The notes beneath the pieces were generated by a model that saw only the letters and a program-made list of their open reading frames with translations, did not search any database and had not been told where the DNA came from. From an uncultured bacterium (lineage in GTDB: Bacteria > Arandabacterota > Arandabacteria > JAGLYR01): a stretch of 64,000 nt of DNA. The stretch spans positions 91 through 64,090 of the forward strand of contig CAZSXU010000024.1 of assembly GCA_964610505.1 (NCBI GenBank). Direction: 5' to 3'. The position numbers were made by a program, and so were the translations under genes. Of the stretch, positions 10,270 to 64,000 are shown piece after piece; positions within the stretch are counted from its first letter, which is position 1; every line of letters begins with the position of its first letter.

Positions 10270-10397
10270 GGTAACCTCCCGATTTTCTCCCGGCTTTCTG
10301 TGGAAGAGCAACACGAGGACCTGTCCGGCATCCAACGGATCACGCGAAGGCCGGACGTCTCTCCATTTCGCCGATCAGCTCCTGGAAACTGCAATAC

Positions 10398-20131: not shown

Positions 20132-20577
20132 AGAAACCCTCCCCCAAAAAGTAAATGCACGGGCCGGCGGCCTATGCGTCGGGCGTACGTCGATTCCAAA
20201 CTCTCGAAAGAATACGCCTATCCGCCGCGGCCGTCAAGCGCTTCCTCGAAGGAGGGATGTCGAATCGGGTGATTTTCCCCGCGGCGCGGGTTCCGCCCCA
20301 CCGACCTGCCGGCATCGTCCAACATACGCAAGCGGCCCCGTCGCTGCGGGATTCGTCGAATGCATTGTCAGGAAATGAAATTGACGGCTCCGGCGCAGGC
20401 TGCGTTCGGGGAACGGTTCTTGCATTGCTCCGGGAGGGGTGGAGATGAACAGGTCGATCCGGCCGGTGCCACCCAGGAGCGAACCCGATGACAATCCATC
20501 CCGGCACGTTCTTCGTAGATCAGCCGTTCGCACACCCCGGTCCGTATCGCCCCTGCGGATCGGGGTGTGTCGCTCGG

Positions 20578-38200: not shown

Positions 38201-39670
38201 ACCGACTACTGGGTGGTTCAGGTCTCGGATGACGGTTGGACCACGTGGGCCACGCTGGAGAACACCAACGTGACGAACCGCAGTTGGCTCATGATGCAGT
38301 TTGACGTCGGCGGCTACGTGGATCTGACGGGCACCGTTCAGTTCCGCTTCATCGCCAGCGATGAAGATCCGGGATCGCTTGTGGAAGCGGGCGTGGACGA
38401 CTTCCTGTTGATGGGGTGTCCAGATCTCACCGATGTGGAACCCCCGACGGTGACCGTCGTGGATCCCAACGGCGGGGAGGCGCTGACGGGCGGCCAACCG
38501 TACGATATCGAGTGGACGTCATCGGACAACGTCGGTGTCGTCTCGACGACCATCCTTCTCTCGACCGACGGCGGCGGGTCGTATCCGACGATGGTTGCCT
38601 CGGGATCCCTGACGTCCCCCTACAGCTGGGACGTTCCGAACGAGGACCAGGCGAGCTGCCGGATCAAGGTAACGTGCGTGGATGCGGCGACGAACGAGGG
38701 AAGCGATGAGTCGGATGCGAATTTCGCCATCGTCTGGCAGGATTACGAGGCCCCCACCGTGACCGTCGTGGATCCCAACGGCGGCGAGGCGATTCAGGGT
38801 GGAGATCCGTACGACATCGAATGGACATCCTCGGACAACGTCGGTGTCGTCACGACCACGATTCTTCTCTCCACAAACGGTGGATCCACGTATCCGACGA
38901 CCATCGCGAGCGGCTCGCTTGCATCACCATATACCTGGGACGTGCCGGATGTGGATGAGCCGTCCTGCCGAATCCGCGTGGTGTGCGAGGACGCCGCAGC
39001 GAATCCGGGCAGCGACGATTCGGACGCGGATTTCTCCATCCTTCCCATCGATCACGAGCCTCCGACGGTGACCGTCCTCGATCCCAACGGGGGCGAGGAG
39101 ATCTTCGGCGCTGGTCCCTATACGATTCGCTGGACGTCGGATGACAACGTCGGCGTCACGCTGACGGCCGTTTTGCTCTCGGTGGACGGCGGTCTCACGT
39201 TCCCCGACACGCTTACCGCCGGGGGGCTGGACTCCGCTTGGGTGTGGGACGTACCGGATGTGGACGAGACGAGCTGCAGGGTCAAAGTCCTCTGCTGGGA
39301 CGCGGAATCGAACGAGGGGAGCGATGCATCGGACGGCGGTTTCACGGTGATCAGTACGGTGACGGCGGTGGCCATGCTGGAAGCGGCTCCGGCGGAACTG
39401 GTGCTTCGCCAGAACCGGCCGAATCCGTTCAACCCGGTGACGGAGATCGAGTTCGGTCTTCCCGAGACCGGGTCGGCACTTCTCGAGGTCTACAACGTGA
39501 ACGGTCGATTGATTACGACACTGGCGGATGGTGTGTTCAACGCCGGCTACCACCGAGTGGTCTGGAGAGGCACGGATGCATTCGGCGCCGAGGTCTCGAG
39601 CGGGATGTATTTCTACCGGCTCGTGACGGAAGAGAAGGTGTTGACGAAGAAGATGTTGATGCTCAAGTAG
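35228..39670 (+). CDS. Giant secreted multidomain peptidase: C25 (gingipain-like) catalytic domain, FN3/Ig-like domains, shared jelly-roll domain, 3 x ~102-aa Ig-like repeats, Por_Secre_tail/FlgD-Ig-like sorting domain
   Basis: Signal MRCATILSIVLVGLLCLGVVPAAAS. C25 blocks are VYVLLGGDDDVVPARIAWDD...DLYYSDTDGSWN...GDVYVGRAPVNTSSEATNFVDQILMYE, ITNHCGHCNYNV (His) and YYTIGCWAAAFDYD (Cys). VVFEDDFETDKGWTVGDAGDDATTGIWDRCDPEWTEAQPEDDHTPD... is shared with the M28 protein. Three TVTV(V/L)DPNGGE...IEWTSSDNVGVV...C(R)I(K/R)V repeats follow. The C-terminus is RQNRPNPFNPVTEIEFGLPETGSALLEVYNVNGRLITTL...GMYFYRL...KKMLMLK. Confidence 0.9.
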   Translation: MRCATILSIVLVGLLCLGVVPAAASEMTHTVIFDPDRMSIESREGFDVVRVGECRFELVAGKPMIPVRTIHFSIPAGMVATALEIRSLEQIELDADLYLHPSQPPVRLSDKTTRQFIGPDPVVYESAEPYPGSVAKLMTNGHMGGYAVVGVQVYPVEYRPAQRKVYLNRRIELALILGPAEEPAGIITGRTEAGERAVMDRVRALVVNPEQVAEHIGPRPKGDRQSIVEYAIITGSSYVDEFQPLADWKTKKGVPTEIFTTDWIYANYTGTDNQEEIRNFIKDYEATEGLVYVLLGGDDDVVPARIAWDDLGYDGIRADLYYSDTDGSWNWDGDGYWGEHPADDVDMYGDVYVGRAPVNTSSEATNFVDQILMYEASSAGATLPTDFQEDMLFMAEILWDDPDPYTNGGIAKDMIDTGYVPSRFDPITKLYEADGNLNYTSAMNAMNDGPGITNHCGHCNYNVMSIGPSALYNSDMDALTNGSRQGIYYTIGCWAAAFDYDNIAEHYVNNTGGGGVAFVGNSRYGWGCPGYPGECVSDLYDQEFFRALFTDDLYNLGITHADARDYYVPDSQSDAYMRYGLYELNVLGCPEMPIWTRTPQTLAVSHPSTLPMGSSYFTVQVNTAKAAIVGATVCLMKDDEVYEVDVTDGSGQVTFEPTPATGGTMTVTVTMHDYLPYEGEATVEVGTPPSAPTGLAAVGGDGQVTLSWNTNPEPDIDYYIIYRATTPAPAGSLTTVMSPGYLDTDVVNDTTYHYRLRAVDTEGDKSGYSNEANATPQKPPVIFITHTPLTDTDDSNNPYPVVATITATETSLDPDSLLVMYETQTRVWESVVMTGTGTPDEYRGDIPAQPCGTLVDYYILAVDMNSNRETHPDLAPASTHSFAVNFTVVFEDDFETDKGWTVGDAGDDATTGIWDRCDPEWTEAQPEDDHTPDSGVRAYITDCDAGTSQGSYDVDGGKTTVLSPVFDLLDYASASVRYYRWYSNDTGSEPGTDYWVVQVSDDGWTTWATLENTNVTNRSWLMMQFDVGGYVDLTGTVQFRFIASDEDPGSLVEAGVDDFLLMGCPDLTDVEPPTVTVVDPNGGEALTGGQPYDIEWTSSDNVGVVSTTILLSTDGGGSYPTMVASGSLTSPYSWDVPNEDQASCRIKVTCVDAATNEGSDESDANFAIVWQDYEAPTVTVVDPNGGEAIQGGDPYDIEWTSSDNVGVVTTTILLSTNGGSTYPTTIASGSLASPYTWDVPDVDEPSCRIRVVCEDAAANPGSDDSDADFSILPIDHEPPTVTVLDPNGGEEIFGAGPYTIRWTSDDNVGVTLTAVLLSVDGGLTFPDTLTAGGLDSAWVWDVPDVDETSCRVKVLCWDAESNEGSDASDGGFTVISTVTAVAMLEAAPAELVLRQNRPNPFNPVTEIEFGLPETGSALLEVYNVNGRLITTLADGVFNAGYHRVVWRGTDAFGAEVSSGMYFYRLVTEEKVLTKKMLMLK
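38441..39362 (+). repeat. Intragenic tandem repeats, 3 x ~306 bp (~80% nt identity), encoding the three Ig-like modules of the giant C25 protein
   Basis: Repeat starts are at ~38444, ~38753 and ~39059. The opening of each unit (gaccgtcgtggatcccaacggcgg...) is nearly identical. Confidence 0.7.
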
Positions 39671-50038: not shown

Positions 50039-50599
50039 ATGAGTTTTCGTTACGAGGTACGCTTGAGCGGCGCCGGAGGTCAGGGACTCTTGTTGATCGG
50101 AAAAGTCCTGGCCGAAGCCGCGGCCGTTTACGATGGGAAAAACGCGACGCAGTCACAGTCGTACGGCCCCGAAGCCCGTGGGGGCGCCAGCAAGAGCGAA
50201 GTCATCATCAGCGACGAAGAGATCGACTACCCCAAGGCGACGGAGATCGATTTCCTTCTGGCCCTGACTCAGGAATCCTGCGACAAGTACTCGGGTGACC
50301 TCAAGCCCGGCGGTATCTTGTTGGTGGACACAACGTTCGTCAGCCGGGTTCCGGAAGGCCAGTTCAAGATCTACCAAGCCCCCATCACTCAGAAAGCCAA
50401 GGACGTTCTCGGGAGCGCGACGGTGGCCAATGTGGTCGCTCTCGGAATGATTTCGGCATTGACCTCGGTCGTCACTTCGGAATCCATCGAATCCGCCATC
50501 CTGGCAAGGGTTCCAAAGGGGACCGAGGATCTGAACACGAAGGCGTTTCAGCTGGGAAGGACGCTCGTCGAGGAAGCCAGCGCGGGTCAAGCGTCATGA
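50039..50599 (+). CDS. 2-oxoacid:ferredoxin oxidoreductase gamma subunit (copy 1)
   Basis: MSFRYEVRLSGAGGQGLLLIGKVLAEAAAVYDGKNATQSQSYGPEARGGASKSEVIISDEEIDYP... is the canonical POR/KOR gamma fold. The track ORF 49607..50599 carries an unsupported N-terminal extension. Confidence 0.9.
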   Translation: MSFRYEVRLSGAGGQGLLLIGKVLAEAAAVYDGKNATQSQSYGPEARGGASKSEVIISDEEIDYPKATEIDFLLALTQESCDKYSGDLKPGGILLVDTTFVSRVPEGQFKIYQAPITQKAKDVLGSATVANVVALGMISALTSVVTSESIESAILARVPKGTEDLNTKAFQLGRTLVEEASAGQAS

Positions 50600-50654
50600 G
50601 GGTTTGCAGGCGGTAGCTTGGGCCGGCGCACGTGTCGAAGATGGAGGCTCAAGA

Positions 50655-50948
50655 ATGAAGTTCTGGAGAACCCCCCTAGATCAAGATCGCCTCAAGGTTC
50701 CCCACGGGGAAGTCCACATCATCAAGGACCGCTGCAAAGGATGTGGGTTCTGTGTAGAGTATTGCCCCCGGGGGGCTCTTGAAATGTCGGACGAGTTCAA
50801 CGTCAAAGGCTACCACCCCCCCCGAGTCACCGAAGAATCTCTCTGCGTGAATTGCAACCTCTGCGAAATGCTCTGTCCCGAATTCGCGATTTTCTGTGTG
50901 CTCAAGGATGAACCGGAATCCGGGGAGGTGAAGCAAGTTGAAGGCTGA
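50655..50948 (+). CDS. 2-oxoacid:ferredoxin oxidoreductase delta subunit (2x[4Fe-4S] ferredoxin)
   Basis: CKGCGFCVEYCP and CVNCNLCEMLCP motifs. ATG 50655 is preceded by GGAGG. Confidence 0.9.
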   Translation: MKFWRTPLDQDRLKVPHGEVHIIKDRCKGCGFCVEYCPRGALEMSDEFNVKGYHPPRVTEESLCVNCNLCEMLCPEFAIFCVLKDEPESGEVKQVEG

Positions 50949-52095
50949 TCCGAAGGGCGTCCTCACGGGCGCACACTACATCGACGGCAACTATGCGATT
51001 GCAGAAGGAGCGCTCGCGGCCGGGTGCCGTTTCTTTGGCGGATATCCCATTACCCCTTCCACCGAGATTGCGGAGCGGTTCGTTCAGCGAGCTCCTTTGG
51101 TGGGTGGCGTCTTCATACAGATGGAAGATGAGATGGCGTCCATGAATGCGGTTCTGGGCGCGTCGTGGGGCGGTGTGAAGTCCATGACCTGCACCTCGGG
51201 ACCGGGGTTCTCCCTCATGATGGAGAATTTCGGATTGGGTCTGATGCTGGAGACTCCCTGCGTTCTGGTGAACGTTCAGCGGGGCGGACCATCGACCGGT
51301 CTTCCCACCCTCCCCGGCCAGGGCGACATGATGCAGGCGCGGTGGGGGTCCCACGGAGACTATGAGGTCATCGCCCTGGCGCCCGATTCGCCGCAGGAAG
51401 GGTTCGAACTGGCCATCGACGCCTTCAATCTCTCCGAGACGTACCGGATGCCCGTTCTGATGATGACCGATGAGTGCGTGGGACACATGACGGAGAAGGT
51501 CGTGATCCCTCCCGCGGAGGAAATCGACGTCGAGCCGCGGCGGTACACCAAGAAGCCGCCCGCGGAGTTTCTGCCCTATGCCGTGGGCGACGATCTGGTG
51601 CCGGACGCTCCCCCGCCCGGGAAGGGTTACCGATTCCACGTGACGGGCCTCACGCACGACGAGCGCGGCTATCCGGTGATCAATGCCGAAGCTCAAGACA
51701 AGCTGGTCCGGCGACTGGTGGACAAGGTTAAGAAGAACGCTAAGGATATTATCCGTTTCGAGGAGATGGATACCGACGGAGCGGACGTCGTGGTGGTGTC
51801 CTACGGGATCACGTCCCGCGTGGTGCAACCGGCCATCGAAAAAGCGAAGAAGAAGGGAATCAAAGTCGGCCAGATCCGCCTGATCGTGGTCTGGCCCTTC
51901 CCGGAAGAGAAGATTCGGGAGCTGGCCGGCAGGGTCAAGACCCTCGTCGTTCCCGAGCTCAACCTGGGACAGGTTGTCCTCGAGGTGGAGCGGTTGAGCG
52001 CCGGCAAGTGTGGAGTGACCCCCGTGACCCACGCCGGCGGGGGCGTGCACGATCCGGAGGCCATCTTCCAGGCGATCAAGGAGGGCGTCAAATGA
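50938..52095 (+). CDS. 2-oxoacid:ferredoxin oxidoreductase alpha subunit
   Basis: The N-terminal alpha-subunit domain is …GNYAIAEGALAAGCRFFGGYPITPSTEIAERF...MEDEMASMNAVLGASWGGVKSMTCTSGPGFSLMMENFGL...NVQRGGPSTGLPT. The start is TTG with a GGGGAGGTG SD, overlapping the delta stop. Confidence 0.9.
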   Translation: MKADPKGVLTGAHYIDGNYAIAEGALAAGCRFFGGYPITPSTEIAERFVQRAPLVGGVFIQMEDEMASMNAVLGASWGGVKSMTCTSGPGFSLMMENFGLGLMLETPCVLVNVQRGGPSTGLPTLPGQGDMMQARWGSHGDYEVIALAPDSPQEGFELAIDAFNLSETYRMPVLMMTDECVGHMTEKVVIPPAEEIDVEPRRYTKKPPAEFLPYAVGDDLVPDAPPPGKGYRFHVTGLTHDERGYPVINAEAQDKLVRRLVDKVKKNAKDIIRFEEMDTDGADVVVVSYGITSRVVQPAIEKAKKKGIKVGQIRLIVVWPFPEEKIRELAGRVKTLVVPELNLGQVVLEVERLSAGKCGVTPVTHAGGGVHDPEAIFQAIKEGVK

Positions 52096-52961
52096 AAGTG
52101 GATGCGCCGGTGAGAGAACACCCGATGGAAGGCCTTCTCAGGATGGACCGGATTCCGCACATCTGGTGCCCGACCTGTGGAATCGGAACGGCGCTGACCG
52201 CGTTTGCGAGCGCTCTGGAGGAACAGGAGGTCTCCCCGGATTCGGTCTCCATCGTTTCGGGCATCGGTTGTACGGGGCGGGTGGCAGGCTACACCAAGCT
52301 CGATTCCTATCACACGACACACGGTCGGGGGATTCCGTTTGCCGTGGGACTCCATCTGGCCAACCCATCTCTGAAGGTCGTGGTTTTCAGCGGCGACGGA
52401 GACCTGGTAGGGATCGGCGGGAATCACTTCATTCACGCCGCCCGGCGGAACGTGGATATCACCGTGGTCTGCGTCAACAACTTCCTCTACGCCATGACGG
52501 GAGGGCAGGTGGCCGCGACGAGTCCCGTCACGGCAAATACATCCACCTCTCCCTACGGCAATTTCGAGCAGCCTTTCAGCCTGCCCCTCTTGGCGCAATC
52601 TTGCGGCGCCGTGTACGTGGCCCGGTGGACGGCTCTTCACATCCGGCGGATGACCAAGGCGTTTGGTGAGGCGCTCCAGAAGAAGGGGTTTTCCTTTGTG
52701 GAGGTCATCGCTCCCTGCTCGACGCTCTACGCCAGACGCAACAAGCTGGGCACGGGGCTCGACCTGATGAAATTCTATCACGACAACAGCGAAATCCGGC
52801 ACGGGGCCGATCCCAACGACCTGGACATCGGGTTTCAGCAGAAAATCGTCTGCGGCAAATTCGTGGATATTGAGAAGCCGACTTTCCTCGACGCGATGAA
52901 CGACGGATACCGCCGCGCATTCGGGGACAGGTACGAAGAATACGGAGGAGCCCATGCCTAA
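52092..52961 (+). CDS. 2-oxoacid:ferredoxin oxidoreductase beta subunit (TPP-binding)
   Basis: WCPTCGIGTALTAFA...GIGCTGRVAGY...VVFSGDGDLVGIGGNHFIHAARRNVDITVVCVNNFLYAMTGGQ is the TPP/GDG motif. ATG 52092 overlaps the alpha stop (ATGA) and has an AGGAGG SD. Confidence 0.9.
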   Translation: MKVDAPVREHPMEGLLRMDRIPHIWCPTCGIGTALTAFASALEEQEVSPDSVSIVSGIGCTGRVAGYTKLDSYHTTHGRGIPFAVGLHLANPSLKVVVFSGDGDLVGIGGNHFIHAARRNVDITVVCVNNFLYAMTGGQVAATSPVTANTSTSPYGNFEQPFSLPLLAQSCGAVYVARWTALHIRRMTKAFGEALQKKGFSFVEVIAPCSTLYARRNKLGTGLDLMKFYHDNSEIRHGADPNDLDIGFQQKIVCGKFVDIEKPTFLDAMNDGYRRAFGDRYEEYGGAHA

Positions 52962-53523
52962 GACAACCGAGATTCGGGTGAGCGGTTTCGGCGGGCAAGG
53001 CGTCATCATGCTGGGCCACATCATCGGGAAGGGAGCCTCGATTTTCGATGGGCGGTTTGCGACGATGACTCAGAGCTTCGGCCCGGAAGCACGCGGGTCG
53101 GCCTGCAGTTCCCAGGTCATCGTTTCGGACGATCGAATCCTGTACCCGTATTTGAGGACGGCGGACGTCTTGATCGCCATGTCGCAGGAGGCGTACGACA
53201 AGTTCCTGCCCGGGCTGGGCGCCAAAGGGACGCTTCTCGTCGATGAGGATCTGGTGAAGATGGGAAAGACCCCGGACGGGATCAAGGTGCACAGGGTCCC
53301 GGCCACCCGATTCGCCGAGGAACTCGGCCGGAGAATTGTCCTCAACATCGTGATGACGGGCTTCTTCACCGCTATTACCGGCGTGGTGAAGCCGGAGTCG
53401 ATGCGGGAAGCCGTGAAGACGTCGGTGCCCAAAGGCACCGAGAACCTGAACCTCCAGGCGTTCGACAAGGGGTTTGAGTACGGGCGCGAGCAGGTAGAGG
53501 GACATGCTGCAAGCAAGCGATGA
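52954..53523 (+). CDS. 2-oxoacid:ferredoxin oxidoreductase gamma subunit (copy 2, paralogue)
   Basis: [65 protein letters not shown]... is ~35% identical to copy 1. It overlaps the beta stop and the hdrA start. Confidence 0.85.
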
Positions 53524-56500
53524 CGGCGATCGCGAATACTCCGGTGGAGACGTCCCTGAGGCGGAAGGACCTCTCGTCGAGGAGACCCTCGGTGAGACCG
53601 CCGAAGAGCCCGCGTCCGAAGAACCCCGGGCGGCCCTGGTCGTCGGAGGCGGGATTGCGGGTATCCAGGCGGCCATCGATCTGGCCGACTCCAATCTCCA
53701 GGTGTACCTGGTGGAACGGTCTCCGAGCCTGGGTGGACGCATGGCCCAGCTCGACAAGACCTTCCCGACGATGGACTGCTCCATCTGAATTCTCGGTCCT
53801 CGAATGATGGATGCCGGTCGGCATCCCAACATCAAGGTTCTGACCTACTCGGAAGTCACGGGTCTCACGGGCGAGGCCGGAAACTTCACGGCCACGGTGC
53901 GGCGTCACCCCCGCTTCGTCAGAGAAGATCTTTGCACGGGGTGCGGCCAGTGTGTGGAGAAGTGTCCCGTGGTCGTCCCCAACGAGTTCGACGAGGGACT
54001 GGGCGCGCGAAAAGCCATCTACTCGCCCTTCGCCCAGGCCGTTCCCAACGTCTACGTCATCGATCGCGAACATTGCCTGAACAGCGACTTCCTGGTTTGT
54101 GAGAACTGCAGCAGATCCTGCGAGAGAGACGCGATCGACTACGACATGAAGCCCGAGGATCTCGACCTCCGGATCGGGGCCGTGGTGGTCGCTACGGGTT
54201 TTGATCTGTTTGATGCCCGCGCGATGAAGAACTACGGCTACGGTCTCTATCCCAACGTGCTGACCTCCCTTGAGCTCGAACGGATGCTGAACGCATCGGG
54301 CCCCACCCGGGGACACATCTTTCGGCCCACGGATCGGAAAGTCCCGCGATCGATCGTCTTTGTCCAGTGCGTGGGAGCCCGGGGAGAGGCGGGCCAGCAG
54401 TACTGCTCACAGTTCTGCTGCATGAACTCGGTCAAGGACTGCATGCTGGTCAAACAGCACGCGCCCGAGATCGAGCGGCTCGAGATTCTCTACACCGACG
54501 TGAGAGCCGCCGGAAAGGGGTTCGAGGAGCTCTACATCCGATCGCTCTCGCAGCCCGAAGTGTCCTATACGCGGGGCCGGCCCTCGAGGATCGAAGAAGA
54601 TCCCGACACGCAGGACCTCATCGTTCACGTGGAAGATACGAAAACGGGAAAGATCGAGAACGTTCGGGCCGAGATGGTTGTCCTCTCCTCGGCCGCCATT
54701 GCGGGGGCGAGGAATCGAAAGCTGGCCGAGGGCCTGGGAATCGATCTGGATCACCACGGGTACTTCCTGTCTCGGGAGGCGGAGGGAGAGTTGTTGGAGA
54801 CGACCCGTTCGGGCGTCTATCTGTGCGGGTGTGCCGGCGGCCCGAAGGACATCTCGGACTCGGTGGCCCAGGCCTCGGGAGCGGCCGCACGGGCGGAGGC
54901 TCACCTCGCGAATTGCCGGAGGCCTACGGAGAAGACGGAGGTCGAACCCCTGGATCTCTCGGGGCCTCCCCGGGTCGGCGTATTCCTTTGCCACTGCGGG
55001 ATCAACATCGCGGGGGTTCTGGATATTTCGACGTTGGGGGAGTCGGCCCGCGCCCTCCCGCACGTGGTCCATGTCGAGGAGAATCTGTTTCTCTGTTCGG
55101 ACACGGGACAGCGGGCGGTGCAGGAGGCCATTCGGGAGCACAAACTGAATCGTGTGGTGGCGGCGGCGTGCACGCCGCGAACGCACGAGCCGATCTTCCG
55201 CCAGAGCTGCCTGGAAATGGGCCTTAACCCTTATCTTTTCGAGATGGTCAATGTGCGGGACCAGTGTTCCTGGGTTCACACCCAGGAGCCGGCCCTGGCC
55301 ACCGAGAAGTCATTGGACCTTCTCCGGATGGCGGTGGCCCGGGCCGTCCGGCTGGAGCCTCTGGAGGCCCAGGAGATTTCGGTCGAACAATCCGCCATCG
55401 TGATCGGTGGGGGAATCGCCGGGATGCAGGCGGCCCTCGACCTGGACCGGCAGGGATTTCCGGTTACTCTCATTGAACAGGGAGACGCCCTGGGCGGGCG
55501 GCTGCTCGAAATCCACCGTCTCTATCCTGATTTCCGCGAGACACGCGTGCTCCTGGACGCCAAACGCCGAGACGTGGAGGCGAGCCATGTCGTGGTTCAG
55601 ACCGGAACCGAGGTGCGGTCGATCGGGGGCTTCGTAGGAAACTTCGAGGTGACGACGGATCACGGTACCCTCAAGACGGGCGCGATCATCCTGGCGATCG
55701 GTTCGGACCTCTACCGGCCCAAGGGGGAGTACGGCTTTGGCACGTACCCGAACGTGATTACGGGGCTGGATCTGGAGAGGCTGTTCTCCTCCTCGGGTGA
55801 GACCCTCATGCAAGACGGACGAGAGATCAAAACGGCGGCGTTCATCCAGTGCGTGGGATCTCGAGATCCCGAGGGACGCATCAGCTGCTCCCGTTACTGC
55901 TGCCCCACGACGGTGAAGCAGGCGATCGAGATGAGAGACCTCGGTGTGGAGGCGGTTGTTTTCTACCGCGACATGCGAACGGTGTCCCAGGGAACCGAGG
56001 AGCTGTACCGTCTGGCCCGGCAGAAAGGCGTACGTTTCATTCCCTACACGCCCGAGTATCGGCCGCGCGTTTCCGGGAACGAGGTCGCCCAGTCCGTAAA
56101 GGTGTTCCACGACATGCTCGGGGACGACGTCGAGGTCGACGTGGACCTCGTCGTGCTGGCCACGGCCATGGTGCCCCGCGAGAAAGAGACGGCCGATCTC
56201 CAGATGCTCCTGAAAGTGCCTCGCGGGACCGACGGCTTCTTCATGGAGCGGCACGCGAAGCTGGGACCCGTGGAGACGGTGGTGGAAGGGGTCTTTGTCT
56301 GCGGAACGGTCCAGGGGCCGAAGGACATCGCCGAATCCATCGCGCAGGCATCGGCGGCCGCGGCCAAGGCCGCCGCCCTGATCTGTCGCGAACGAATCGA
56401 GCTGGAACCCACGACGGCGGTCGTGGATACGGCCCTCTGCAGAGCCTGTGGCCGGTGCGTGGAGATTTGCGATTTCCATGCGCCGGAGATCCAAGATCTG

Positions 56501-56659
56501 CCGACCGGGCTTCGGGCCGCCGTGATCAACCAGGCCCTGTGCAAAGGATGCGGCACCTGTGCTTCGTTGTGCCCGACCGGAGCCATTGCGGCCCGGCACT
56601 TCACCGACGAGCAGATCTTCGCCATGATCGAATCGTTGCTCCTGGGAGAGGTGGTGTAG
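53504..56659 (+). CDS. hdrA: Heterodisulfide reductase subunit A-like flavoprotein, selenoprotein (in-frame UGA at 53786-53788), double-module ~1051 aa
   Basis: Track ORFs 53504..53788 and 53804..56659 are in the same frame, separated by TGA. Read-through gives ...[36 protein letters not shown], matching the conserved HdrA FAD-domain motif KTFPTxDC(S/A)xCIL(S/T)PKM(V)E(A)GRHPNI with Sec replacing the second Cys. Module 1 is GxGxxG FAD ([20 protein letters not shown]), Fd ([13 protein letters not shown]), and CVGAR...YCSQFCC. Module 2 is a Cys-rich N-domain ([14 protein letters not shown]...), a second FAD domain ([17 protein letters not shown]), CVGSRD...CSRYCC, and a C-terminal 2x[4Fe-4S] ([24 protein letters not shown]). 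Confidence 0.85.
53809..53826 (+). promoter_or_regulatory. SECIS-like hairpin GGAUGCC-GGUC-GGCAUCC downstream of the hdrA UGA
   Basis: A perfect 7-bp stem with a GGUC apical loop begins 21 nt after UGA. GGUC is also the apical loop of the E. coli fdhF SECIS (GGUUGCA-GGUC-UGCACC). Confidence 0.6.
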
Positions 56660-57160
56660 ATGGCCAGGAAGAAAACGCCCGGAGCGAAAACCCCCGCACG
56701 GGGCCGGAAGAAAGCGGTGGAATTCGTTCCCCGGATCATCGTTTTCGCGTGCAACTGGTGCAGCTATGCCGGGGCGGACAACGCCGGGGTCAACCGGATT
56801 CAATACTCCCCGCATTTCCGGGTCATCCGGACCATGTGTTCGGGACGCGTTCATCCCTCCTTCGTTCTGAGGGCCTTCGAACTGGGCGCGGACGGAGTTC
56901 TGGTCTCAGGATGCCACATCGGGGATTGTCACTACATCTTCGGAAATGAGAGGGCCATCGAGAACTTCGAGAAGACCAAGGCTTTGGTCAAGACCCTGGG
57001 TCTCGAAGAGGGCCGGATCCGGCTGGAGTGGGTTTCGGCCGCCGAGGGCCCTCGTTTCGGACAGGTCATCGATGAATTCGTCGATGCCGTTCGCAACCTG
57101 GGGCCCTCGCCGATCGGGAAGAATGGAGGGGCGGCCACGGGTGCTGAACCACGAAAGTGA
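56660..57160 (+). CDS. mvhD: MvhD-like (methyl-viologen-reducing hydrogenase delta subunit family / FlpD-like) [2Fe-2S] protein
   Basis: [18 protein letters not shown]...[39 protein letters not shown] is the hallmark MvhD motif. Confidence 0.85.
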   Translation: MARKKTPGAKTPARGRKKAVEFVPRIIVFACNWCSYAGADNAGVNRIQYSPHFRVIRTMCSGRVHPSFVLRAFELGADGVLVSGCHIGDCHYIFGNERAIENFEKTKALVKTLGLEEGRIRLEWVSAAEGPRFGQVIDEFVDAVRNLGPSPIGKNGGAATGAEPRK

Positions 57161-57198
57161 GCATCGTCGGGCCGGAATGTGAAACCCCTGAGCGCGGG

Positions 57199-58350
57199 AT
57201 GAGCAACGTGGAGATCTTCTGGAAGAGTATCAAGTCGAGCAGGGCCTACTCCTGTCTGGAGTGCGGCAAGTGTACGGCCTGCTGCCCGGTCTCCCGCTAC
57301 AACGGGGTGTTCTCGCCGCGCCGTGTGGTGGCCGAGACGATCGAGGGAGGTGGGGAGGGCCTGATCTCGAACGCCGCCCTTTGGGAATGTCTCACCTGTG
57401 GGATGTGTGAAGAACGCTGCCCGATGGACGTGCACTTCTCAGAGTTCATGAGGTCCCTCAGGACCGTCGCTCTGGATCGGGGATTCTCCTCGGTGCCGTC
57501 GCACGGAGGCGTGCTCCAGTCTCTGATGCGGATGATGGTGTCTCCCACGATGAAACAGGATCGGATGTGGTGGGTGACCGAGGATTTGGAGATCGAGTCG
57601 CGCGGGGAGATCCTCTACTTCGTCGGGTGTCTGCCCTATTTCGACGGTCTCTTCGCCCCGGATTTCAAGTTCAAACCTACGGACATCGCACAGGCGACGG
57701 TCCGGATTCTCAATGCGGCCGGAATCCAACCCGTGGTCGATCCCAACGAGCGGTGCTGCGGGCACGATCTCCTCTGGTCCGGAGACGAGAAGAACTTCAA
57801 GATGCTGGCAGAGCAGAACGTCGCAGCGATTCGGGAGACGGGGGCCTCGGTCGTGGTCACGGCCTGTGCGGAGTGCGCCTCGACGCTGAGAGACGTGTAT
57901 CCGGCATACGTCGGTGCCCCGGGCTTCGAAGTGAAACACCTGGCGGAACTGGTGACCGAGCGATCGGGGGACCTCTCCTTCAAGGAAGCCGCAGCAAGCG
58001 TGACCTTTCAGGATCCGTGTCGCTTGAGTCGGCATATGGGACTGAAGGACGCCCCCCGGCAGGCTTTGGACCTCGTGCCCGGTCTCACACGGGTGGAAAT
58101 GCTCCATTCCGGGTCGAACGCGATGTGCTGCGGTACCAGCGCCTGGATGAGCTGCGACCAGACATCCAAACGCATTCAGGGCGACCGGTTGGCGGAAGCC
58201 GAGGACACGGGGGCGGACACCCTGGTGACCGCGTGTCCCAAGTGTCAGATCCATTTCCGGTGTGCCCTTTCCGACGGACAGACGAGTGGACAACCCCAGA
58301 TGGATATCCAGGATCTGAGCGTTTTCCTGGCATCCTGCCTGCAGCGGTAG
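57199..58350 (+). CDS. hdrD: HdrD-like heterodisulfide reductase subunit (HdrC-type 2x[4Fe-4S] fused to HdrB-type tandem CCG domains)
   Basis: CLECGKCTACCPV and CLTCGMCEERCPM (HdrC part). The CCG domains are VGCLPYFDG...ERCCGHDLL and QDPCRL...MCCGTSAWMSC...ACPKCQIHFRC. ATG 57199 (MSNVEIFW) is preferred. The track start 57157 overlaps mvhD. Confidence 0.85.
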   Translation: MSNVEIFWKSIKSSRAYSCLECGKCTACCPVSRYNGVFSPRRVVAETIEGGGEGLISNAALWECLTCGMCEERCPMDVHFSEFMRSLRTVALDRGFSSVPSHGGVLQSLMRMMVSPTMKQDRMWWVTEDLEIESRGEILYFVGCLPYFDGLFAPDFKFKPTDIAQATVRILNAAGIQPVVDPNERCCGHDLLWSGDEKNFKMLAEQNVAAIRETGASVVVTACAECASTLRDVYPAYVGAPGFEVKHLAELVTERSGDLSFKEAAASVTFQDPCRLSRHMGLKDAPRQALDLVPGLTRVEMLHSGSNAMCCGTSAWMSCDQTSKRIQGDRLAEAEDTGADTLVTACPKCQIHFRCALSDGQTSGQPQMDIQDLSVFLASCLQR

Positions 58351-58371
58351 TTCAGCAGGAGGTGAATACGG

Positions 58372-60873
58372 ATGTTCGAGACGGCAAAGACAGACGGGAT
58401 CAGGGTCGGCGTGTTCGTCTGCGATTGCGGACTGAATATCGCAGGCACCGTGGATACGGAGGCGGTGGCGGAATACTCCCAGACCCTGGACGACGTGGTC
58501 GCCGTGATCCGCAACAAGTATACCTGCGCCGACCCCGGGCAGAATGAGATCAAGAAGGCGATCGTCGAACACAACCTGAACCGTGTGGTCGTCGCCTCCT
58601 GCACGCCGAAGATCCACGAGCCGACGTTTCGAAACTGCGTGGCCGAGGCGGGACTCAATCCGTATCTCTTCGAGATGGCCAACATCCGGGAGCACGTGAG
58701 CTGGGTCCATCAAACCGAGAAGGAAGCCGCCACCCAGAAGGCAAAGGACATCGTCAGGTCCGCCGTGGCTCGGGCCCGGCTGCTGGAAGCCCAGACCGAG
58801 GCAGAGGTGAAGGTCACACAGGCGGCCCTGGTCATCGGTGGGGGGGTGGCGGGAATCCAGGCGGCGCTGGATCTGGCCGACTCCGGCCATACGGTCTACC
58901 TGGTGGAGAAAGAGCCGACGATCGGCGGAATTATGGCCGCCCTCGACAAAACCTATCCGACCATGGACTGCTCCATATGAATTCTCGGTCCGAAAATGAT
59001 GGATGCCGGTCGGCATCCCAGGATCCGGCTTCTGGCCAACAGCGAAGTCACCGACGTCAAGGGATACATCGGGAATTTCACGGTGACGATCAGGCGCAAG
59101 GCCCGCTACGTGGACGAGACCGAATGTACCGCTTGCTCGGAATGCGCCAAGGTCTGTCCGGTTGCGGTGCCGGATGAGTACCAGCAGGGATTCTCCTCAC
59201 GGAAGGCAATCTATATTCCTTTCCCTCAGTCTGTTCCGTCCTCCTACATCATCGACATGGAGAGCTGCCTCGGGAATAACCCCATCGCCTGCGGGAAATG
59301 CCTGGAAGCGTGTGACAAGGACTGCATCGACTTCGACGCCAAGGACGAGTTCATGGAGGTCGAAGTCGGGACCGTCATCGCCGCCACCGGGATGGATGTA
59401 TTCGACCCGTCCGGCCTGGATGAATACGGGTACGGCAAGTATGAGAACGTGATCACGAGCATGGAGTTCGAGCGGTTGATCTGCGCGGGAGGGCCCACGG
59501 AGGGACACTTCATCCGGCCGAGCGACCGGAAGCTGCCGATGAGAATCGGATTCGTCCAGTGCGTCGGCTCCCGGTCCGAGAGAGGGGGCGTCCCGTACTG
59601 CGGCAACATCTGCTGCATGAACACCATCAAGGATACCCTTCTGCTGGCGGATCACTACCCGGACGTGGAATCCACGGTGTTCTACATGGACATTCGAGCT
59701 TTCGGGAAGGGATTCGAAGAGCTCTACCGGCGAAGCAAGGAGGAAGGGGTCCGCTACATTCGAGGCCTTCCGGGGGAGATCCTGGAGGATCCCAAGACCC
59801 GGAACCTCCGCGTGCGGGTGGAGAACACCACGGCCGGACGCCTGGAAGAGCACGAGCTGGACATGGTGGTCCTCTCGGTGGGAGTGATTCCCCGTCACGA
59901 TTCTCCCGCCATTCGCCAGCTGCTGACCCTCTCGAAGACGGCGGACGGTTTTCTCATGGAATCGCACCCGAAGCTGAAGCCCGTGGATGCCCCGACCCGG
60001 GGTGTATTCTTCGCCGGTTGCGCCGAGTATCCCAAGGACGTCAAGGATAGCGTGACGCAGGCGTCCGCTTCCGCTGCCCGCGCGGAGATTCTGCTCAACC
60101 AGGGGAAGGTGACCATCGAGGCCATCACGTCGAGGATCGACGCCGAGAAGTGCATCTTCTGCGGCCGGTGCGCGAAAGTCTGTCCGTATAACGCCATCAC
60201 CCAGCCCGATCGGAAGAAGAAACTGTTGCCCATGGTGGTGGAGGCTGCGTGTGCCGGGTGTGGAACCTGTGCGGCCGAGTGCCCGACGGATGCCATTGCG
60301 ATGCGGCATTTCACGGACGAGCAGATCCTGGCTCAGATCGATGCCTATCTGGCGGAGAAACCGGAAGAGCAGATTGTCATCTTCGCGTGCAACTGGTGTT
60401 CGTACCCGGGTTCGGACCTGGCCGGGACCTCGAGAATTCAGTATCCGACGCACGGCCGAGTGATCCGCACGATGTGTTCGGGGCGCGTGGACGAGAAATT
60501 CGTTCTCCGCGCCTTTGAGCTGGGGGCGCCGCTGGTGCTCGTGTCGGGGTGTCATTTCTCCGATTGCCACTACATCAGCGCCGTGCAGTGGACGCAGGCG
60601 CGAATCGAGAAGCTCTGGGACAAGCTCGAAAAGCTGGGCATCCGCCCCGAAAGGCTCCAGCTGGAGTGGATCAGCGCGGCGCAGGGCCAGAGATGGGCCG
60701 AAACGATGAAGGCCCTGGAGGATCTGCGTGGGAAGGTGACGAGGGAGGAGATTCAGGAAACCCGGAAGATCCTGACGGATCTCCGGGCGAAAAAGGGTGC
60801 GGGAAAGACGAAAGCCAAGGCCAAGGCCAAAACCAAGGCGAAGGCCAAGGCTAAAACCGGCACGTCGGAGTGA
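58372..60873 (+). CDS. hdrA: HdrA-like flavoprotein fused to C-terminal MvhD domain, selenoprotein (in-frame UGA at 58978-58980), ~833 aa
   Basis: Track ORFs 58372..58980 and 58996..60873 share a frame across TGA: ...[36 protein letters not shown]. Domain order is Cys-rich N-domain ([14 protein letters not shown]), FAD ([20 protein letters not shown]) with Sec, Fd ([13 protein letters not shown]), CVGSR...YCGNICC, and 2x[4Fe-4S] ([24 protein letters not shown]), then MvhD ([18 protein letters not shown]...[39 protein letters not shown]). An AGGAGGTGA SD sits before ATG 58372. Confidence 0.85.
59001..59018 (+). promoter_or_regulatory. SECIS-like hairpin GGAUGCC-GGUC-GGCAUCC downstream of the second hdrA UGA
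   Basis: The nucleotide context is nearly identical to the first hdrA: ccatggactgctccat(a/c)tgaattctcggtcc...aatgatggatgccggtcggcatccca. Confidence 0.6.
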
Positions 60874-60882
60874 GGGAGAACC

Positions 60883-61029
60883 GTGGCGGACGAAGCGGAT
60901 TTCAAGTGCCTCCGGTGTGGGGCGGATCTGAAGTTCCCCTACACGGAAGGAGAGGGGCCCAAAGAGCGGGCCTGCCCGAAATGTAAGAGCAACAGTGTGC
61001 GCCGGATCAAGAAAAAGAAAGACGAATAG
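60883..61029 (+). CDS. Small zinc-ribbon protein (48 aa; CxxC...CxxC), not in ORF track
   Basis: GTG start 4 nt after a GAGGGAG SD, immediately after the hdrA' stop. The product is VADEADFKCLRCGADLKFPYTEGEGPKERACPKCKSNSVRRIKKKKDE. It is too short for the track cutoff. Confidence 0.4.
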   Translation: MADEADFKCLRCGADLKFPYTEGEGPKERACPKCKSNSVRRIKKKKDE

Positions 61030-61099
61030 CGGCTCAGCTGCTGCTGCGGGTGGACCGATACGCATATCGGAGGGCGAACCTGAGGGATCGCCCTCCGCG

Positions 61100-61190
61100 C
61101 TGTCGGGGCGAACGGGCGGCAGCCCCCACCCCGAACCACAGATTAGCTGCCTCGCAAACGAGGCGGCGCACAGATTGCGCAGATTCAAAT
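61100..61190. repeat. Degenerate REP/MITE-like element (CCACAGATTAGCTGCCTCGCAAACGAGGCGGCGCACAGATTGCGCAGATTC; contains CGGGGCGA and GCCTCG-caaa-CGAGGC hairpin)
   Basis: Read directly downstream of the zinc-ribbon ORF. It shares the CCACAGATT / CACAGATTG motifs with the other copies. Confidence 0.45.
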
Positions 61191-61290
61191 GTGCATGGAG
61201 GCAAGAACCGGCCTCCATGCAGCAGCTATTCCCTTCGTGCTCTTCGTGATTCCGACTTTGGGTTCCGGCCGTAGCGGTTGAGGGTCGCCG

Positions 61291-64000
61291 ATGGACGCGC
61301 TCGCCATCCTGAAAGACCGGGCCTCGATTCTGGGCAATCACAACCAGAAATACATCCGGACCATCGAGACGTTCGAAGACCGCCTCACGCGGCGGCTTGA
61401 GCTTCGAGGGGTTCGCGATAAGGTCCATCTCTATCGCGACGCACCGAATCCGGGTCCCGAGATGGACGCGATCGTCTCGGTGTCCGACGACGGACAGGAC
61501 GTTCTCGATTTCCTCGGTTGCTATTACGCCTTCCGCTTCCTGGGGATGAATCTGGGGTTGTTGGACGCCCTTCACCTGGATCTCCTCTCGGAAGACGATC
61601 GCCCTTCGGTCTTGTTCCGACAATTCATGAAACAGTCCGGGACGGAATTCCGGATGCTGACCACGCATTACATGCAAAGGCTTCTGGACCTTTTCGTCGG
61701 CCGGGGAGAGGTGCCGGAATTCGTGCTTCTGGGTACGGGAACCCGGGCGGATCAGGACGATATCGACGTGGGGGTCGTGGTGAGTGGAGAGGGCGACCGG
61801 GACTGCCTGGATCGCGCCATCGGGCGGCTCCGGACGGAAATGCTGCGCCGGGCCAGCTGCCTTCATTTCCATCTCTCCGAACACGTCGGAACTCGGGTGT
61901 ACTCGGCCACGATCGAGGAGTACCAAACCCTGCTGGCCAAACGGATCCACGATTTCGTTATCATTAGCGAGATGCTGGGCGCGGCGCACATCCTGGGCAG
62001 CCGCCGGTTGTTCGAGGTGTTTCAGAGGGACGTGACGGACCGGTACTACTACCGGTTCGGGGAGAACATCTATCACGAGGGATTTCTCCGCGGCATCGTA
62101 GGTGAAATCCGTGCACTGGTCGCGCATCCGGTGCAGCTGGAGTCCATCCACCCGAAGAACGATGGGCTGAGGATGATCAAGGGGCTCATCGCCGCGATGA
62201 AGACCATCTTCGGCGTGCAGAAGGTCAATGCCTGGGACATTCTCGATGACCTCAGGGTCCGGGACGCCGACAACGCCCAGATCTACGAACAGCTGGATGA
62301 GGCGCTGACCTTCCTGGAGATCTTCCGGCACATCTATCAGCTCCTGGTGGTGCAGGAAGAGGACATTCCCCTCAGAGATGAGAACATCCGGCAGAATCTC
62401 CAGGTTGTCGCTACCCGCATGGGATACCACGACGTGGGGATCGTAAAGGCCTGGAATCACCTGGTCATCCACTACAACGAACATGTGAAACTCGCCCGGG
62501 AGGCGGTGACCGCCCTCATGCCTGACTTGACCGCGCACCTGGGGGAGTTCTCGATCTTCAGCTCGATGGCCCAGACGGCCAACCTCTCGGACGTGGCTGA
62601 GAACGTGAAGCAGAACCTGGCGGTGGGCTTCATCTCCGAAGCGGCGTTCTTCGGCGGAACGCGTTATTGGGACGACGTTCTGACCCGCCTGGAGGAAGAG
62701 AGCGGCCGGGTCCTGGGCCGATTCGTGGCGGACATAGCGGTTCTTGACAAACGCGTGCGAACCCAGCTTCTTCGGCGCTACGCCACCTGCGCAGGGTTCG
62801 CGCCCTATTCCATCCTGCGACTCCTCGTCGTCGTCAAGAGATACCGGGGGCACCCGGAGTCGGGCGCGATCTTTGAGGAGCTCACCCGCTTCGTTCTCGA
62901 GGAACTGAAACCGAGAGCCAACACGCCCACCCGGTTCTGCATGCTGTTCTACCTCTACCCGGAAGTCATGAACGGTTTCCTGGATCTCTGCTCCGACGAG
63001 GACCGCCTCCGGGTGAGGGAGCTGGTCCAGGGCCCCATCCACAGCGAGGAGTTCGTCGGTGTCCGGGAGGCCCTTCTCTACCTCTGCGATCTTCATATTC
63101 AATCGAGCCGCGCCTTCAAGCGGCAGATCATGAGCGTGGTCAAACGCCATCCGACAGTGCTCCATCATCTCCACGATTTCGACCGGCTGTGGGGCATGGC
63201 CCGGGGGTACTTCGCGGAGAGCCAGAGGATGCCCCAATTCAGGCGGCGAAAGGAGCTGTTGGGCGATTATTACGATCTCTCCTACCTGACCGTGGCGCTG
63301 GAAACCCTGGAGGGGAAGCCGATCGAGGACATCAATGCCCGGTTCACGGAGTTCTCGGACAACTACGTTCAGGTCCTCTTTGACATCTGCAGGCAGGAGG
63401 TCGAGGAGGAGTCCGGAGAACCCGTGGCGACGCGTGATTTGCTGGCCGTCTACGCAGCGGGGGGGAACGCGAGGGAACAGGCCTTCGACGACGATTACGA
63501 CATGTTCTTCGTGCTCAATTCCACGGACGAGGATGTCCGGATGCACTGCAACCGAATCGCTGGCAAGATGAACAGCGAGATCGGCAAGAGAGGCATCCTG
63601 CCCCACTATCGTCTGGCGGACCACTTCGGTCACTACGTGACGCTGGCGTCCGAGATTGAAGAACTTCTGACCTCGGAGAGCGAGGACGTGTTTGTGGATC
63701 AGTCACAGATCCTCGGATCGAGAATGGTGGTGGGCAGCCGAAAATTCGCGGAAAACTTCGAAGAGCACGTGATCGGCCCCCTCATCTTCCGGGACTCTGA
63801 GCGGTACGCGAAGCACATGATCAAGGAAATCCGATCGCGGCACGGGGAAGAGTCCCCCGGCGCACCCTGCCTGGACGTCAAGGAGTGCGCGGGCGGGCTC
63901 CGAGACATCGAGATGATGCTCCTGGTTCTCAAGGCTCGGTACGGCGTCCGGATGCATCTGGGGGAGAAGTTCGTCGATCTCATGGTGGACATCGCCAAGG
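61291..64000 (+). CDS. GlnE-like bifunctional adenylyltransferase/adenylyl-removing enzyme homologue (two nucleotidyltransferase domains + GlnD/GlnE-type helical domains), 3' end outside window
   Basis: The frame is open from ATG 61291 (GAGGG SD 6 nt upstream) to the window end (~903 codons). It is absent from the track because there is no stop in the window. NTase motifs are FVLLGTGTRADQDDIDVGVVV and VYAAGGNAREQAFDDDYDMFFVL. A GlnE/GlnD-type CAGGLRDIEMMLLVLKARYG motif is also present. The 1478-aa antisense track ORF 59197..63633 is its shadow. Confidence 0.6.
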   Translation, partial: MDALAILKDRASILGNHNQKYIRTIETFEDRLTRRLELRGVRDKVHLYRDAPNPGPEMDAIVSVSDDGQDVLDFLGCYYAFRFLGMNLGLLDALHLDLLSEDDRPSVLFRQFMKQSGTEFRMLTTHYMQRLLDLFVGRGEVPEFVLLGTGTRADQDDIDVGVVVSGEGDRDCLDRAIGRLRTEMLRRASCLHFHLSEHVGTRVYSATIEEYQTLLAKRIHDFVIISEMLGAAHILGSRRLFEVFQRDVTDRYYYRFGENIYHEGFLRGIVGEIRALVAHPVQLESIHPKNDGLRMIKGLIAAMKTIFGVQKVNAWDILDDLRVRDADNAQIYEQLDEALTFLEIFRHIYQLLVVQEEDIPLRDENIRQNLQVVATRMGYHDVGIVKAWNHLVIHYNEHVKLAREAVTALMPDLTAHLGEFSIFSSMAQTANLSDVAENVKQNLAVGFISEAAFFGGTRYWDDVLTRLEEESGRVLGRFVADIAVLDKRVRTQLLRRYATCAGFAPYSILRLLVVVKRYRGHPESGAIFEELTRFVLEELKPRANTPTRFCMLFYLYPEVMNGFLDLCSDEDRLRVRELVQGPIHSEEFVGVREALLYLCDLHIQSSRAFKRQIMSVVKRHPTVLHHLHDFDRLWGMARGYFAESQRMPQFRRRKELLGDYYDLSYLTVALETLEGKPIEDINARFTEFSDNYVQVLFDICRQEVEEESGEPVATRDLLAVYAAGGNAREQAFDDDYDMFFVLNSTDEDVRMHCNRIAGKMNSEIGKRGILPHYRLADHFGHYVTLASEIEELLTSESEDVFVDQSQILGSRMVVGSRKFAENFEEHVIGPLIFRDSERYAKHMIKEIRSRHGEESPGAPCLDVKECAGGLRDIEMMLLVLKARYGVRMHLGEKFVDLMVDIAK

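Follow-up and report, generated by a model that had tools for sequence, protein, structure and literature searches.

Two hdrA paralogues of an uncultured bacterium as probable selenoprotein genes carrying the same in-frame bacterial SECIS hairpin

The 64,000-nt stretch of DNA from an uncultured bacterium analysed here (contig CAZSXU010000024.1; hereafter the window) contains two paralogous genes for flavoproteins resembling heterodisulfide reductase subunit A (HdrA), hdrA1 (53504..56659, + strand) and hdrA2 (58372..60873, + strand), each interrupted in frame by a UGA codon. We consider it highly probable (roughly 0.9) that both are selenoprotein genes, in which the UGA is decoded as selenocysteine (Sec) by means of a bacterial selenocysteine insertion sequence (SECIS) hairpin located inside the coding sequence, 21 nt downstream of the codon. 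The initial annotation of hdrA2 had proposed a UGA-Sec site shared with the first hdrA, open reading frames (ORFs) that are in frame across the TGA, and about 60 nearly identical nucleotides around the codon in two proteins that differ elsewhere, and it had left open whether selection on the RNA or gene conversion was responsible. Its descriptive claims hold throughout; as to the cause, our data support selection on the RNA, and conversion is not needed.

The UGA of hdrA2 (58978..58980, +) lies within the CxxU motif DCSIU, where the ORF 58372..58980 ends in TGA and continues in frame into 58996..60873, with coordinates and frame exactly as first annotated. The UGA of hdrA1 (53786..53788, +) is found in an identical DCSI-U-ILGP context. 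The hdrA2 codon aligns with Cys197 of the HdrA structure 5odc_A and with the Cys of Cys-type homologues (e.g., P0003 and P0005, which read DCSICVLGPKMMD); both UGAs occupy this Cys197-aligned position, and the same hairpin follows each. For comparison with other genes, we used 79 loci from a metagenome scan with HdrA1 and 80 loci from a one-genome-per-species scan with an HdrA2 alignment, and extracted every P[ST]xDC[SA]x[U/C] match, obtaining 165 distinct Sec and 43 Cys sites. TGA is kept at the Sec position in the 165 distinct homologous sites. An in-frame UGA, a Cys in homologues and an ORF conserved on either side, the combination expected of a bacterial Sec site, occur together. TGA is an ordinary stop in 11 of the 23 Pfam-supported genes of the window, hdrA2 itself included, and the recoding is therefore site-specific and does not reflect a changed genetic code. 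Across the window, 154 in-frame TGAs have an open frame on both sides, a number that reflects noise in G+C-rich DNA; the two hdrA sites alone have both a redox motif and the hairpin.

The codon immediately before the Sec-UGA, an Ile codon (58975-58977 in hdrA2; columns 4-6 of alignment A1), shows a bias of its own. It is ATA in 104 of 156 Sec-type sites, whereas the equivalent codon of Cys-type genes is ATA in 7 of 28 cases and a further Ile codon, located 15 codons downstream, in 24 of 151; ATA makes up only about 1% of the Ile codons in the window. In this comparison, which ignores kinship, ATA may represent a context signal for Sec decoding.

The hairpin following the UGA has the sequence GGATGCC-GGTC-GGCATCC in both genes, starts 21 nt past the TGA and forms a perfect 7-bp stem with a 4-nt loop, while its codons encode M-D-A-G-R-H-P. 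In hdrA2 it spans 59001..59018 (+), with 59001-59007 pairing with 59012-59018 and the GGUC loop at 59008-59011; the hdrA1 hairpin, identical in sequence, spans 53809..53826 (+). On the + strand of the window, the 18-mer GGATGCCGGTCGGCATCC occurs in exactly these two copies (53809-53826 and 59001-59018), compared with a shuffle expectation of 0.26 matches when up to three mismatches are permitted. The consensus bacterial SECIS (bSECIS) model calls for an upper stem of 4-16 bp capped by a loop of 3-9 nt, a G in one or both of loop positions 1-2, usually followed by G or U, a distance of 16-37 nt from the UGA, and a minimum free energy (MFE) of -7.5 kcal/mol or lower (PMC13188914). Both hdrA hairpins agree with the model on all four counts: the loop is the 4-nt GGUC on a stem of 7 bp; the loop reads G-G-U-C, with columns 37, 38 and 40 invariant and column 39 at least 90% conserved among 82 sequences; the distance from UGA to loop is 27 nt in both genes (58981-59007 and 53789-53815); and the 18-mer alone folds at -11.5 kcal/mol.

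Comparison across Sec-type genes shows that the structure is conserved far beyond the window. The Sec sites come from metagenome-assembled genomes (MAGs) labelled Calditrichota, Zixibacteria, KSB1, Ignavibacteria, Acidobacteriota, Gemmatimonadota, Planctomycetota, Chloroflexota, Desulfobacterota and others, and the hairpin core GAU-GYC-GGU-CGR-CAU is present in nearly all of the 165 distinct sites; at least six of the seven pairs form in 159 of the 165, with a mean MFE of -10.8 kcal/mol. Among 82 Sec sites, the hairpin codons for D, A/V, G and H have a third-position entropy of 0-0.4 bits, versus 1.3-2.0 bits in the flanking codons, and the hairpin Asp is GAT in 76 of 76 cases, while at codon -4 Asp is GAC in 55 and GAT in 27. 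The 82 distinct sequences have 96.5% of their alignment cells paired, versus 22-57% when the partners are slid, and RNAalifold finds the identical core. Compensatory change is seen in pair 35-42, in which position 2 of the Ala/Val codon faces position 3 of the Arg codon; this pair is C:G in 43, U:A in 26 and U:G in 13 of the 82 sequences, with none unpaired. Here a change of the protein between Ala and Val goes with a synonymous change of the Arg codon, which neatly illustrates how one set of bases can carry both an RNA signal and a protein motif. On a neighbour-joining (NJ) tree of short sequences from which the SECIS-encoded residues had been masked, at least 24 and at least 23 changes are counted on the two sides of this pair, which has clearly changed many times. 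A C.A mismatch occurs at one of 151 sites; this single case (L089:2689-2735, Ignavibacteria MAG), a Sec-hdrA with GCC...CGA, looks like an intermediate between Val/U:A and Ala/C:G.

A small Sec-hdrA subgroup departs from this pattern. Six sites reading LVEVGRH[LF] (L057:158, L061:8169, L065:2653, L072:474, L075:701 and L080:5618) lack the standard hairpin and have a 5-bp hairpin, GGUCG-AGGU-CGGCC, located 3 nt further upstream, with GGU still in the loop.

Cys-type genes provide a control for the hairpin. The full seven-pair structure is found in none of the 43 Cys-type sites, whose mean MFE is -3.6 kcal/mol, and the six Cys-type genes with the same MMD[AV]GRH peptide use their codons freely (e.g., GAC GTG GGC CGT CAC), forming only 3-6 of the 7 pairs. 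The structure is thus conserved with compensatory change and is specific to Sec-type genes. The contrast extends to the protein, since Sec-type genes are almost confined to D-[A/V]-G-R-H at the hairpin positions, whereas Cys-type genes vary there, allowing E, D or A in the first position and G, S or A in the third. The protein, in turn, is thus restricted by the RNA element.

Against this background, the near-identity of the two paralogues around the UGA can be divided into its components. Positions 58961-59020 and 53769-53828 are identical at 55 of 60 nt, the longest identical run being 26 nt (58995-59020). No other 60-nt segment in the codon alignment of the two FAD (flavin adenine dinucleotide) domains scores as high as this one, at 92% nucleotide and 95% amino-acid identity; the means for the domain are 58% and 49%. 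Between hdrA1 and hdrA2, the five hairpin codons have a proportion of synonymous differences (pS) of 0.00, and the codons UGA+1 to +13 one of 0.16. In the 12 codons that immediately precede the UGA, where the protein is equally conserved (proportion of nonsynonymous differences, pN, 0.03), pS rises to 0.55, and in the rest of the domain it is 0.62. Where both proteins have the same amino acid, the codon is identical at 9 of 10 positions from the UGA to the end of the hairpin and at 111 of 204 elsewhere (p ~0.02), and the codons GAT, GGT and CAT used in the hairpin are in the minority of their families in the 64-kb sequence (41%, 14% and 33%, respectively). The conserved protein motif alone accounts for a large share of the 60-nt identity, and the comparison of sequences indicates a second cause, selection on the synonymous sites of the hairpin. 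A double constraint on protein and RNA explains the identical hairpin within a 92%-identical stretch, despite 49% amino-acid identity and synonymous saturation elsewhere.

Four other explanations of these data have to be weighed. The UGAs could be true stops in split or decaying genes, as suggested by gene callers, which return products of 94 and 950 aa for hdrA1 and of 202 and 625 aa for hdrA2; however, the break falls exactly at the Cys197 codon inside an invariant motif, at the 165 distinct sites the frame continues across the codon and both flanks are under strong purifying selection, and the downstream ATGs are simply the conserved Met-Met of the motif. We rejected this reading, which is barely credible, on the position of the break and the preserved frame. 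A recent duplication of hdrA or of a segment would fit two homologous genes located 5.2 kb apart in one operon, but it would predict equally high identity across the FAD domain, and this expectation, raised with the initial annotation, fails: the domains share 49% of amino acids and 58% of nucleotides with a pS of 0.62, the domain architectures of the two genes differ, and dozens of genomes belonging to several phyla contain separate orthologues of each copy, spaced 5.1-5.5 kb apart. Flank divergence led us to reject duplication, to which we give practically no credence. It is also very improbable that the identity reflects only amino-acid conservation and the codon bias of the genome, with no RNA element under selection. 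The 60-nt stretch is indeed also the most conserved one in the protein (95%), and the motif LGPKMMD[AV]GRHP is found in Cys-type homologues too, but those Cys-type genes vary the codons of the same motif (GAC GTG GGC CGT CAC), the hairpin uses the minority codons GAT, GGT and CAT, the 12 equally conserved upstream codons reach a pS of 0.55, and the compensatory pair 35-42 exists. Codon bias alone was rejected on these four grounds.

Gene conversion deserves a closer look. A short tract of 26 nt or less, or concerted evolution, could have copied the hairpin from hdrA1 to hdrA2, adding to selection on the RNA, and several observations are consistent with this. The nearest hdrA2 orthologues (74-78% identical) mostly have the V-type hairpin GAT GTC GGT CGA CAT, while the window and its 84% relative L006 have in hdrA2 the A-type hairpin (C:G, Ala) that matches their own hdrA1. 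The two paralogues of the window agree at 18 of 25 free third positions, the top value among 42 genomes (mean 13.1 within genomes; 11.4 between genomes, standard deviation 2.6), and identical 16-nt cores occur within 20 of the 42 genomes versus 15.5 +/- 1.8 after shuffling (P = 0.007, in a test that ignores phylogeny and shared codon bias). Both paralogues of a Zixibacteria MAG (L106; 2170-2215 and 7595-7640) read GAT GTC GGT AGG CAT, giving a GGUA loop found in no other sampled genome; the synonymous sites flanking the two copies differ. In the window, however, pS is already near saturation just upstream of the UGA (0.55) and is 0.62 in the rest of the domain, so that no extended tract is visible and synonymous divergence is not lowered beyond the constrained sites. 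The 26-nt identical run is made up of a pair of Met codons, the core that is invariant throughout the family and hardly any free sites, so that almost all of it is invariant in the family or non-degenerate. The V-to-A switch with its A-to-G partner has recurred many times in the tree and has an apparent intermediate in the Ignavibacteria MAG described above; therefore, two point substitutions suffice and conversion is not needed. We regard copying between the two genes as unlikely. Similarly, the broader idea that the hairpins of the two paralogues are not independent within a genome, because minute conversion tracts or a common adaptation to that genome's SelB keep them alike, is at present a doubtful one. 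The A-type hairpin in hdrA2 of the window and L006, the GGUA loop shared by both copies in L106 and the surplus of identical cores within genomes point in its direction, but within-genome likeness also fits clade structure and shared codon bias.

Several results must be set against Sec decoding through the shared hairpin. The folding energy is unexceptional relative to shuffles in this G+C-rich sequence (z about -1), and the case for the hairpin therefore rests on comparison with other genes rather than on thermodynamics. No Rfam family matches at gathering thresholds over the whole window, or at E <= 10 over 53700-59100. Covariation is confined to one of the seven pairs, and the six invariant pairs are uninformative by themselves; moreover, the counts of change at the covarying pair hang on a crude NJ tree of short sequences and are possibly inflated. 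Finally, neither selA, selB or selD, among the ORFs scanned, nor a gene for tRNA-Sec was found in the 64-kb window, which has no tRNA genes, and the decoding machinery is therefore only presumed.

If the mechanism is analogous to that of Escherichia coli fdhF and Moorella fdhA, the hairpin would bring SelB.GTP.Sec-tRNASec to the ribosome as it reaches the UGA, allowing Sec to be inserted. Its 18 nucleotides are under a twofold constraint, having to encode the M-D-A-G-R-H-P peptide and to fold as an RNA structure. In HdrA, Cys197 coordinates the N-terminal [4Fe-4S] cluster of the partner protomer (PMC9012536), and the Sec at the equivalent of this methanogen residue would probably serve as the cluster ligand.

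Both genes are recognizable as hdrA by several features. The hdrA2 product is a canonical HdrA, with an N-terminal [4Fe-4S] domain, an FAD domain and two ferredoxin domains, one inserted and one C-terminal; an MvhD/VhuD domain is fused to its C-terminal end, with the VhuD match at residues 666-784. It scores 1181 bits on the curated NCBIfam model NF040770 (HdrA2), above the cut-off of 1100, and aligns with the HdrA structure 5odc_A at E = 3e-159 over residues 141-563, an alignment that matches up ...YC..CCM and DCSI[C/U]. The FAD-binding thioredoxin-reductase-like domain (GxGxxG), the unusual CX12CX3CC cluster motif and the Cys197 position of HdrA are all present. At its C-terminus, hdrA2 ends in a Lys/Ala-rich low-complexity tail (60790-60870), of which a shorter form is found in two relatives of 88-89% identity (P0034 and P0039). 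Translation and a BLASTP comparison with hdrA2, with 50% identity in the FAD domain, identify hdrA1 as a fused "double HdrA", whose first half has the Sec at the Cys197 position without an N-terminal cluster domain, and whose second half has the N-terminal cluster domain without the Cys197 motif. Its score of 1090 bits on NF040770, slightly under the cut-off, is expected from this rearranged double architecture. In the wider sample, both paralogues have their own sets of orthologues, each carrying Sec, in MAGs of many phyla; the genomes nearest to the window by HdrA2 are Calditrichota, Zixibacteria and KSB1 MAGs, at only 73-75% identity.

The two genes belong to an operon in which 2-oxoacid:ferredoxin oxidoreductase genes are followed by hdrA1, mvhD, an hdrCB-like fusion and hdrA2-mvhD. 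The oxidoreductase genes (gamma, delta, alpha, beta, gamma; 50039..53523, +), which lie upstream and abut hdrA1, were assigned by Pfam matches to POR, Fer4, POR_N and TPP_enzyme_C, made on the identical contig L001 and mapped to the window by an offset of 48995. Between the two hdrA genes are an mvhD/vhuD-like gene (56660..57160, +; Pfam FlpD, NCBIfam VhuD-like 113 bits), which has no in-frame UGA, and a gene for a fused HdrC/HdrB-like (GlpC/TfrB-like) iron-sulfur protein with a CCG domain (57199..58350, +). An identical contig is present in three metagenome assemblies, and the end carrying hdrA2 is also found on two shorter Logan contigs. Records of the contig are ENA ERZ27256770 k141_458568 and JGI 3300017989 and 3300029258. 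In this non-methanogenic bacterium, reduction of the CoM-S-S-CoB heterodisulfide is an unlikely physiological role; the adjacent genes for 2-oxoacid:ferredoxin oxidoreductase, MvhD and the HdrCB-like protein point to a complex for flavin-based electron transfer linked to ferredoxin.

Long antisense ORFs run over hdrA2 and its neighbours (59197-63633, 57439-59016 and 51801-53024, all on the - strand; up to 1478 aa). We rejected these as genes, including the one of 1478 aa over hdrA2, and consider them shadow ORFs of a G+C-rich genome, because their codon-position G+C content is the mirror image of that of the real genes (about 0.8 at first and 0.62 at third positions).

Elsewhere in the window, genes for secreted proteins typical of the Fibrobacterota-Chlorobiota-Bacteroidota (FCB) group are found at 35228-39670 (+), 8008-10335 (-), 20488-22389 (+) and 1952-4486 (+), including a gingipain-like C25 peptidase of 1480 aa, proteins with a C-terminal domain of the FlgD_ig type, and a TonB-dependent receptor with CarboxypepD_reg. 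These genes fit the nearest hdrA matches in Calditrichota, Zixibacteria and KSB1 MAGs, and suggest that the host is a member of the FCB group.

For practical purposes, public data hold each of the two genes as two fragments, which should be joined as selenoproteins, and the core TGA-ATH-N18-GATGYCGGTCGRCATC provides a simple and specific marker of Sec-type hdrA in metagenomes. The pair is a clear but ordinary case of a known mechanism in a family long known to contain selenoproteins, and our results leave the understanding of Sec decoding and of HdrA unchanged.

The best-known bacterial SECIS elements, those of E. coli fdhF and Moorella thermoacetica fdhA, are coding-sequence hairpins located shortly 3' of the Sec-UGA; their small apical loop starts with GGU(C) and is bound by SelB. 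The hdrA element resembles them in its location within the coding sequence and in its small GGU(C) loop. In fdhF, the loop starts 18 nt after the UGA. The hdrA loop, in contrast, starts 27 nt after it, and the hdrA stem, which is fully paired over its 7 bp, lacks the bulged U seen in fdhF and encodes a different peptide.

HdrA itself is a long-known CxxU selenoprotein family, with several copies per genome and hdrA-hdrA fusions in Deltaproteobacteria (PMC1794560, PMC13188914), and Sec-HdrA has been described in Deltaproteobacteria and Clostridia, e.g., in Syntrophobacter fumaroxidans with seven copies, again with hdrA-hdrA fusions (PMC1794560). The genes of the window share with these the CxxU family, the presence of several Sec copies in one genome, the fused or tandem arrangement of hdrA, and the adjoining mvhD/frhD and GlpC-like genes (PMC1794560). 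They differ from them in belonging to an uncultured host whose nearest genomes are the distant (73-75%) Calditrichota, Zixibacteria and KSB1 MAGs, in following 2-oxoacid:ferredoxin oxidoreductase rather than hydrogenase genes, and in that the MvhD and GlpC-like genes of the window are without Sec. In the VhuD-associated Sec-HdrA of Methanococcales and Methanopyrus, Sec likewise stands at the Cys197 equivalent, and the association of HdrA with VhuD recurs here, as a fusion in hdrA2. The archaeal SECIS, however, lies in an untranslated region and has a different structure (PMC13188914), whereas the hdrA element of the window is a bacterial-type hairpin within the ORF. In other fused HdrAs, namely HdrA3/4 of anaerobic methanotrophic archaea (ANME) and the HdrA of Moorella MetFV-HdrABC-MvhD, the Cys197 ligand and the N-terminal domain are located on different halves, and these complementary halves suggest an internal heterodimer (PMC9012536). 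The two halves of hdrA1 are complementary in the same manner; unlike in ANME HdrA3/4, however, their order is reversed, with the Sec197 half first and the N-terminal-domain half second, and the putative ligand is Sec rather than Cys.

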